Shown here piece by piece: positions 1-1,129 of a stretch of DNA of 64,000 nt. Position 1 is the stretch's first letter; each line of letters begins with the position of its first letter. The notes below the pieces were generated by a model that worked only from the letters and a program-made list of their open reading frames with translations, was not told where the DNA came from and made no database searches. This stretch comes from a virus (Duplodnaviria > Heunggongvirae > Uroviricota > Caudoviricetes): IMG/VR virus record IMGVR_UViG_3300018475_000004. One strand, written 5' to 3'. The translations under genes and the position numbers were made by a program.

Positions 1-931
1 AGAAGTTGTAAAATTAAATCCTAATAATTACGCTGAAGATATTAATGGTAATCCAGTAGATATTGAAAGTGGAAGTGCAGGAGATGTAATGATTGCTTTT
101 CCAAGAAGAGGATTAAGAATTACTAAAAGCGACGATAATAAAGTTACTGTTAGTTTTACAAATGATATTGCTAATACAGATTTTACTTATTACGCACATA
201 CGCATAATAAAGATTTAGATACATTTTATACTGGTGCTTATGATGGCTATATTGATAGTGATGGTAAATTACGTAGTTTAAGTAATAAAACCCCTACGGC
301 TTCTAAAACTATTAGTGAGTTTCGTGCGGCAGCCCAACTAAATGGCGATGGTTATGAGTAGTTTGCTTACTATCAATTAGTTTATTTATAGGCCATGTAT
401 GTTATAAAATATAAATCTTTGAATGGACAAACTGCTCTCGGATATGGTTATACTAATAGTTCTAATTCTGCTCCTATTATTACTGGAACAATGAATAATC
501 AAGGATTGGATTATGGTGGAACGGATACTGAAGGTATGAAATTTGCGGGAATTGAAAATTTTTGGGGTAATATTTCTAAATGGTGTGATGGCATTGTTAC
601 TGATGCTTCTAGAAATTATTTAACTACTACTGGAGCTTTTGATGATTCTGGCACTAATTATGAATTTACCAATGCTTCTGGACTCACTAGTAATACTTAT
701 GGATATTATACCAATTGTTTAGGTACTAGTGAAGGCGGATTTGTTATAACGGCTAAAGGAGGTAGTGGTACAACTTACTTCTCTGATTATGCGGGTTGCA
801 ATTCGTCTCGCGTCGCGCGCTTCGGTGGTTATTGGGCTAACGGGCTGGCTTCTGGTCCTTTCTTTCTGCGTTTGAACGATTCCGCGTCGAGTGCGAGTGC
901 GAATGTCGGTGGCCGCATCCAAAAATTATAA
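1..931 (+). CDS. DGR target protein, C-terminal part (5' end lies outside the window); C-type-lectin-like variable region at the C-terminus; two in-frame TAG codons (359-361, 389-391) presumed read through
   Basis: The frame starting at nt 2 is open from the window edge. ORF-track entries 89..361 and 395..931 are in the same frame and separated only by TAGs. The C-terminal 'GGYWANGLASGPFFLRLNDSASSASANVGGRI' maps onto the VR, which differs from the downstream TR only at TR adenines. The stop is TAA 929-931. Confidence 0.6.
789..918 (+). repeat. DGR variable repeat (VR) at the 3' end of the target gene
   Basis: About 130 bp aligned with the TR at 1000-1129. There are about 25 mismatches and every one falls where the TR has A; no other substitutions occur. 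Confidence 0.85.
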
Positions 932-935
932 AAAA

Positions 936-955
936 TTTAAAGAATAGTAAAATTC
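936..955 (+). other. Short hairpin (aaagaat/attcttt, 6-nt loop) 18 nt after the VR end
   Basis: Inverted repeat seen directly in the sequence. Its position resembles the hairpins found downstream of VRs in characterised DGRs. Confidence 0.3.
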
Positions 956-999
956 TTTGAATATATGGGTTACTTATACGATAAAATATTTATTCCACG

Positions 1000-1129
1000 A
1001 TACGAATTGCAATTCGTCTCACGTCACGAACTTCAGTAGTAATTGGAATAACAGGCTGAATACTGGTCCTTTCTATCTGAATTTGAACAATTCCACGTCG
1101 AATGCGAATGCGAATATCGGTGGCCACTG
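1000..1129 (+). repeat. DGR template repeat (TR), non-coding; rich in AAY codons when read in the VR frame
   Basis: Near-identical to the VR except at adenines. In the VR-equivalent frame it reads TNCNSSHVTNFSSNWNNRLNTGPFYLNLNNSTSNANANIGGH, with at least 14 AAT/AAC codons. ORF-track entry 957..1163 is this repeat, not a gene. Confidence 0.85.

Follow-up and report, generated by a model that had tools for sequence, protein, structure and literature searches.

Features of the locus and the VR2/TR2 repeat pair

The DNA analyzed here, a 64-kb stretch of a viral genome (64,000 nucleotides; hereafter the window), comes from a gut-type phage of about 206 kb and carries the repeat pair of a diversity-generating retroelement (DGR) close to its first base. 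The features identified in this part of the window, all on the plus strand, are as follows.

2-931 (+): target gene 2, its 3' 309 codons; the full gene (397 aa) starts 263 nt upstream of the window and its stop codon lies at 929-931
789-916 (+): VR2, the variable repeat; the final ~43 residues of the ligand-binding surface are encoded here
917-931 (+): VR2 3' flank, ATCCAAAAATTATAA, where the matching between VR and TR stops; the VR1 flank is near-identical
935-957 (+): AT-rich hairpin downstream of VR2 (stem about 10 bp, loop 6 nt; dG -4.7 kcal/mol, z -2.1)
1000-1127 (+): TR2, the template repeat that pairs with VR2 and does not vary (128/128 identical in contigs L001, L004, L005, and L006; unchanged in L087)
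1128-1295 (+): structured non-coding RNA after TR2, equivalent to the DGR RNA spacer ('Sp'); 81% identical to the segment that follows TR1
1289-1317 (+): strong hairpin with which the TR2 RNA module closes; its counterpart in the same place after the TR1 module differs in sequence
1345-1533 (+): 61-aa ORF, helical, whose reading frame includes a TAG (1384-1386); a neighbouring gene whose membership in the DGR is not supported

VR2 (789-916) and TR2 (1000-1127) aligned without gaps over 128 nt at an offset of 211 and differed at 25 positions, with an adenine in TR2 at 25/25 and G, C, or T at every one of these sites in VR2, the coding, upstream copy. Thirteen of the 38 adenines in TR2 were left unchanged in VR2, and the hypergeometric probability that 25 mismatches all fall on 38 A among 128 positions was 2.2e-17. 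Read in the VR frame, TR2 contained AAY (Asn) codons at 13/43 positions, in agreement with an earlier description of this template, made from the letters alone, as rich in Asn codons. That sequence-only reading had also placed the VR at 789-918 and the TR at 1000-1129 with about 25 differences, every one an A in the TR; the pair is real and realignment gave 25 such differences, with both ends shortened by 2 nt, as the two copies no longer match beyond 916/1127 and non-A mismatches occupy 917-918. The VR2/TR2 pair is therefore a genuine DGR signature, and the earlier DGR reading is supported.

The reverse transcriptase lies upstream of the window

A six-frame search of the window for the Y/F-x-DD motif revealed nothing resembling a reverse transcriptase (RT), and tblastn of the 64-kb window with the cognate RT gave a best E-value of only 0.18, both agreeing with the previous claim that no RT is encoded within the window. 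The ORF at 1680-2561 (+, 293 aa), said before to lack RT motifs, indeed yielded a marginal Peptidase_U32 match alone; it was considered as an RT or accessory gene and rejected given this weak match and its differing position in other strains. A relative with 39% identity was present in the IMG/VR contig L003, and L004 and L006 harbored a 291-aa Peptidase_U32-like gene (presumably the same) before the tail-fibre module, at a different position, indicating that this gene moves between strains.

The exact protein of this ORF was looked up in public assemblies, leading to contigs of about 203-206 kb. One of these, L001 (JGI 3300029705, 205,979 bp), matched the window without a single mismatch across an overlap of 12,561 nt and reached 3,049 nt further upstream; it is through other assemblies of this phage that the window is linked to the RT. 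The additional sequence comprised the 3' part of target 1 with VR1/TR1, the RT gene, and the 5' end of target 2. The RT gene (381 codons, -1689 to -544 in window coordinates) encodes a protein with the LPIGSYLSQ and RYMDD motifs that matched Pfam RVT_1 (E 2.5e-19). Its best PDB match was 8ub7, a 328-aa chain named 'Reverse transcriptase' (E 1.5e-33), in which both the IGSxxSQ and the RYMDD motif were aligned; we take this chain to be the bRT of the Bordetella phage BPP-1. The combination of (I/L)GxxxSQ and YxDD that marks DGR-clade RTs was accordingly found in the same element, upstream in L001 and outside the window. It had been proposed that the RT must lie upstream of the window or be missing; the first part holds, with the RT encoded 544-1689 nt before the window in L001, and the second does not.

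The position of the window's first base is explained by a 174-bp exact repeat common to both target genes, inside which the window starts, since the assembler broke at this repeat and left the window beginning within target 2. At least four independent contigs (L001, L002, L087, and L089) had starts within a few bases of one point, and the first base of L089, a 64,137-bp JGI contig, was position 1 of the window. Given this break and the RT in L001, the missing RT is an assembly artefact. The portion of the repeat within the window is 1-122, the copies in L004 are at 3163-3336 and 6213-6386, and the RT-bearing 3-kb unit was often assembled apart, for example as a 3,006-bp contig of P0002.

Cassette layout and the second module

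The cassette runs in the order target 1 (VR1), TR1 with its spacer RNA, RT, two small ORFs, target 2 (VR2), and TR2 with its spacer RNA, such that one entire gene separates the RT gene from TR2, about 2.5 kb further downstream; the cassette was present in its entirety in L004, L005, and L006, which are assemblies from other samples. VR1 and TR1 in L001 showed 31 differences, with a TR1 adenine at 31/31 (P = 4e-21). The two templates shared 69% identity, and the pairing was specific, as VR2 had 0 non-A mismatches against TR2 and 24 against TR1. Further upstream in the cassette were one ORF with an Mtd_N domain and one Ala-rich coiled-coil fibre. The latter, a 409-aa fibre gene, was searched for a third VR, and no match to TR1 or TR2 was detected in it, so that it was rejected as a third target.

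No match to Avd (PF05635) or another accessory protein was obtained among the cassette ORFs (36, 61, 76, 95, 142, and 154 aa). For the 61-aa ORF in particular, neither an Avd nor a PHROG match was found, with a weak SlyX match only, and the ORF occurred solely in strains of this phage and in 0/80 related DGR loci. It was consequently discarded as an Avd-like accessory gene, and the suggestion that the TAG-containing ORF 1345-1533 might be an accessory element did not survive the absence of Avd similarity and of any counterpart in the 80 loci. BPP-1 needs Avd; to our knowledge, an accessory protein (Avd or HRDC-type) is not universal among DGRs. Taken together, one RT apparently serves two separate template RNAs with no detectable Avd in the cassette.

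A comparable arrangement was found in L057 (IMGVR_UViG_3300000286_000005), an unrelated 98-kb viral contig whose RT is about 49% identical. This contig carried two VR-TR-RT-17-like modules 5.6 kb apart, with the RNA at 263-359 and 5914-6011, each RNA copy after its own TR and with an A-biased VR nearby, and a single RT in the 12.8-kb locus, indicating that the layout recurs. A layout of two templates with one RT is less common. On this evidence, positions 2-1317 of the window very probably represent the distal half of a two-target DGR in a large TAG-recoded phage of about 206 kb.

Structured RNA after the templates

The segment after TR2, overlooked in the sequence-only reading, contains a hairpin at 1152-1168 and, at 1196-1294, an RT-17-like motif (ACCUUGCC-UCUU-GGCAAAA ... 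GUGUUAGUA ... GAA). The spacers of the TR1 and TR2 modules were 81% identical and thus more similar to each other than the templates themselves (69%). Positions 1201-1289 matched the Rfam family RT-17 (RF03020) with 35.1 bits and an E-value of 2.7e-5, under the gathering score of 40.4, and the copy after TR1 reached 26.9 bits, also below gathering; both copies matched RT-17 as well as RT-18 with significant E-values and scores under gathering. Like Rfam RT-17 and RT-18 (RF03020, RF03021; PMC5737381), they present a UGCC-UCUU-GGCA hairpin followed by AAAA, UAGUA, and GAA elements; both nonetheless fall below gathering, and the window copy stands after a TR and adjoins no RT gene. Among 12 related IMG/VR loci retrieved with the RT, four (L007, L010, L011, and L016) exceeded the gathering score for RT-17 (40.7-47 bits), and in each of these the match ended at the RT start codon. 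In L010, recoding likewise occurs, and the ORFs there are broken into fragments.

Our own covariance model found the element in the window and in about 35 of 80 related viral DGR loci, always on the RT strand and nearly always ending at, or no more than about 100 nt upstream of, the RT match. Two copies of the element were found in this phage and L057 only among the 80 related loci. The first hairpin of the element, P1 (1205-1218 in the window), had 0 broken pairs in 32 sequences and compensatory changes in 3/4 pairs; RNAalifold recovered P1 alone and did not recover the inner stems of RT-17. An exact-pattern scan for the conserved spacer RNA returned 0 matches both in IMG/VR and in JGI metagenome contigs, even though the protein-linked contig index does contain this phage. 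The closing hairpin (1289-1317) is conserved in position between the TR1 and TR2 modules and replaced in sequence; it was rejected as a canonical intrinsic terminator because no T-run lies behind it. A promoter for the TR2 RNA was sought, and none was identified.

RT motifs near RT genes have been described by Weinberg et al. (2017), who suggested roles in DGRs (PMC5737381), and in BPP-1 the RNA lying behind the TR is indispensable and serves to prime cDNA synthesis in cis, from Sp A56 (PMC6182149; bioRxiv 10.1101/2023.10.23.563531). The positional evidence presented here points to Rfam RT-17 as the TR-linked spacer RNA of a large viral DGR clade, the RT-17-like motif staying with its TR even where the RT gene is 2.5 kb off.

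The distance between TR2 and the RT gene, with a complete gene intervening, also invites the explanation that VR2 is diversified by a second RT dedicated to the TR2 module and encoded by the host or by another part of the ~206-kb genome, the more so because the RT-17-like RNA abuts its RT in most related loci and the RT search covered the 64-kb window and the cassette of a ~206-kb genome, about 140 kb of which lies beyond. Nevertheless, the TR1 and TR2 spacer RNAs share the same motif and an identity of 81%, which recognition of both by one RT would predict, the 64 kb downstream contained no RT, and L057 has the same layout with one RT in its 12.8-kb locus for two VR-TR-RNA modules. A second, dedicated RT is thus considered improbable, and service of both modules by the RT upstream of the window is preferred.

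Variation between assemblies

Across L001, L004, L005, and L006, both templates were identical (TR1 136/136, TR2 128/128), and the target gene outside the VR was 99.1-99.4% identical between assemblies, against 84-87% for VR2. VR2 displayed 28 polymorphic columns in the assembly comparison including L001 and L004-L006, of which 27 were TR2 adenines, and all 24 polymorphic columns of VR1 were TR1 adenines. L004 and L006 were identical over 7.8 kb save for VR2 and two mismatches at 700-800. In L087, which belongs to the window's JGI project series, the sequence equaled window 1-1447 save for 17 substitutions, all within 794-910 and 16/17 at TR2 adenines. Two VR2 differences fell at non-A positions, one in L006 and one in L087. 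The 13 members of the VR-bearing protein cluster conformed to YAxCxSSRVAxFGxxWxxGLxAGPFxLxLxxSASxAxAxxGGRxQKL, with variation at x only. The polymorphism restricted to TR adenines that the sequence-only reading had named as a check was therefore found between assemblies (27/28 VR2 columns).

The DGR is currently active, with invariant TRs and a VR2 that varies almost only at TR2 adenines. In addition, the exact VR2 protein of the window was found on 21 contigs of one JGI project series, suggesting that diversification is not constant in every population.

Two other explanations of the repeat pair can be judged against these data. In the first, already suggested as an alternative in the sequence-only reading, the locus would be a decayed or orphan DGR remnant, its VR/TR a fossil of past mutagenic homing that is inactive for want of an RT, in line with the 64-kb window lacking an RT and with the constancy of its VR2 protein on those 21 contigs. 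This is contradicted by the intact RT with catalytic motifs 544 nt upstream in an identical assembly, by near-identical genomes that differ essentially in VR2 alone, and by the perfect conservation of TR2 and its RNA beside a VR2 of 84-87% identity in genes otherwise more than 99% identical, making decay very improbable. In the second, the two repeats would be the product of an ordinary partial gene duplication, and the A-bias would stem from base composition or chance, for which the AT-richness of the genome (GC 33% in 1-2000) and the many short repeats of the region might speak; yet all mismatches fall on template adenines in both pairs (25/25 and 31/31; P about 1e-17 to 1e-21), the A is always in the non-coding copy, and polymorphism between samples is confined to those columns, leaving this origin hardly credible. 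An active DGR hence remains the preferred reading of the locus, which offers a clean natural case of a working system in which otherwise identical genomes differ in the VR.

Target protein and VR boundary

Target 2 matched the tail protein family phrog_5302 (E 1.1e-54, residues 22-394), and its relatives in deposited phages, as found by tblastn, were annotated as tail protein or tail collar fibre. A Pfam search of target 2 gave no domain match, and megablast of window 1-6000 against deposited phages gave no match. The AF2 model of target 2 had a pLDDT of 93.7, and its top fold matches were TaqVP, TvpA, Mtd, and FGE. Target 2 is thus a tail protein with a C-terminal C-type-lectin fold, as predicted by the model, and with the VR at the 3' end of its gene, consistent with the C-type-lectin-like tail tip proposed earlier. 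The match to TaqVP of Thermus aquaticus (PDB 5vf4) is one of fold, at 16% sequence identity, and TaqVP is a bacterial protein and not a phage tail protein.

At the other end of the repeat, the GC-rich VR terminus (GGTGGCCGC) together with the 3' flank forms an IMH-like boundary. Both VR1 and VR2 have TCCAAAAAYTATAA after the repeat, where TR1 and TR2 have CACTSTTTTGTTATT instead, and by likeness to BPP-1 this VR 3' boundary may act as the IMH. The AT-rich hairpin after VR2 (935-957) is a possible but weak target-site hairpin (z -2.1), and its reading as a conserved target-site cruciform lacks statistical support, the VR1 counterpart being not significant, with a 5-bp stem and a flank folding no better than shuffled sequence (z +0.56); the earlier suggestion that it might be an accessory element is likewise not supported.

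Gene content of the rest of the window

Beyond the DGR, an ORF of 1402 codons from stop to stop (2588-6793, +) carries three in-frame TAG codons, internal repeats of about 430 nt, and, according to the ENA gene call, Flg_new domains; strains differ in this ORF, with a 551-aa version in L004 and L006 and none in L005. The gene at 6923-9424 (+) encodes an 833-aa protein matching Pfam MVP_shoulder (E 8.4e-22) and Vault_3 (E 1.5e-8), and this MVP-like gene, unexpected in a phage, adjoins the DGR in all strains. GC content was 33-36% in 1-6000, the tail-fibre/DGR end, versus 42-48% in the next 34 kb, and GC skew was positive throughout the window, with all long genes on the plus strand. Furthermore, NAMPT-like (28736-30535), RNA ligase-like (21776-23242), SPFH/Band_7 (38033-39589), and PIN-PhoH (40370-41722) genes were present, which are auxiliary genes typical of large phages.

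TAG recoding

Target 2 has in-frame TAG codons at 359-361 and 389-391, both aligning with Gln codons in target 1, and the RT gene has 11, of which the one at RT position 253 aligns with Q in 76/80 homologues. TAG is thus probably read as Gln in target 2 and the RT, judging from these alignments. Within the window, in-frame TAG was confined to a subset of plus-strand genes, among them target 2, the 61-aa ORF, and the fibre-like ORF of 1402 codons; other TAG-bearing genes on this strand include 12673-13467, 41713-43452, 52645-53631, and 62115-63914. The genes gyrB (44153-46060), gyrA (47178-49565), the NAD-dependent ligase (49979-51982), DnaB (58398-59951), and sigma-70 (19038-19958) contained no TAG. 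This pattern fits a partial TAG-to-Gln recoding of late genes. A tRNA search of the window found none, so that a suppressor tRNA does not lie within it. Owing to its 11 in-frame TAG codons, production of the RT should need amber suppression, and mutagenesis would then be coupled to the translation phase of the recoded late genes.

Proposed mechanism and comparison with known systems

In the mechanism proposed here, TR2 and the ~170-nt RT-17-like RNA downstream of it would be transcribed as one RNA. This RNA would be bound by the RT, whose gene lies 544-1689 nt before the window. By analogy with BPP-1, the downstream RNA may fold back and prime cDNA synthesis in cis, and adenines would be copied unfaithfully; the A-specific outcome is observed at this locus, and the priming chemistry is presumed. 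The cDNA would then replace VR2 at the 3' end of the tail gene, a replacement that is apparent in the VR-only variation between otherwise identical genomes, with the VR-specific 3' boundary probably directing it. The outcome would be about 20 randomised positions at the tip of the tail protein on a C-type-lectin scaffold, presumably altering receptor binding. We tentatively suggest that 'VR - TR - RT-17-like RNA' constitutes a self-contained duplicable module, served in trans by a single Avd-less RT, a proposal that is quite possible and falls just short of being probable.

The system resembles the BPP-1 DGR (mtd-avd-TR-brt) in its A-specific transfer from TR to VR, in an RT that shares homology (E 1.5e-33) and the IGSxxSQ and YMDD motifs with the 8ub7 chain, in a structured RNA after the TR, which in BPP-1 is needed for cis-priming (PMC6182149), and in a separate upstream ORF with an Mtd_N domain. 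Unlike BPP-1, its cassette has no detected Avd gene, its genes are arranged as target-TR-RT-target-TR, a separate TR and spacer RNA accompany each of two targets where BPP-1 has one TR, the RNA motif is RT-17-like and not RT-10, the motif assigned to BPP-1 in PMC5737381, and the RT and targets carry in-frame TAG codons. DGRs with recoded RTs have already been described in gut phages (Lou et al. 2023, bioRxiv 10.1101/2023.08.07.552389), and the present locus, likened to them by its features, shares with these TAG-recoded human-gut phage DGRs a VR that mutates over time or between samples; that report describes neither two TR modules nor a TR-linked RNA motif. In a survey of 948 DGRs, 271 had several VRs, and 216 of the 271 had a single TR (Yan et al. 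2019, PMC6642488), leaving about 55 with more than one TR. Like those multi-TR DGRs, the phage combines one RT with multiple TRs, every TR having its cognate VR; unlike them, each TR here demonstrably has its own downstream structured RNA, and the distal module is parted from the RT by a whole gene. Multi-TR DGRs (PMC6642488) and recoded phage DGRs are thus already on record, and the novelty is modest, residing in the RT-17-like RNA that accompanies each TR and in the single Avd-less RT that apparently serves two modules.

Exact repeats between paralogous DGR targets can split metagenome assemblies, with the result that DGRs seem RT-less or 'decayed'. Moreover, the engineering of DGR mutagenesis calls for RNA modules that are minimal and for an RT that works with several programmable templates, and this arrangement is useful to that end. 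If the modular reading is correct, RT-17 would be the cis-priming, RT-recruiting scaffold of this DGR clade, the duplication of such modules would provide a simple evolutionary route to new targets, and the 11 amber codons of the RT would confine mutagenesis to the infection window in which TAG is read as Gln.
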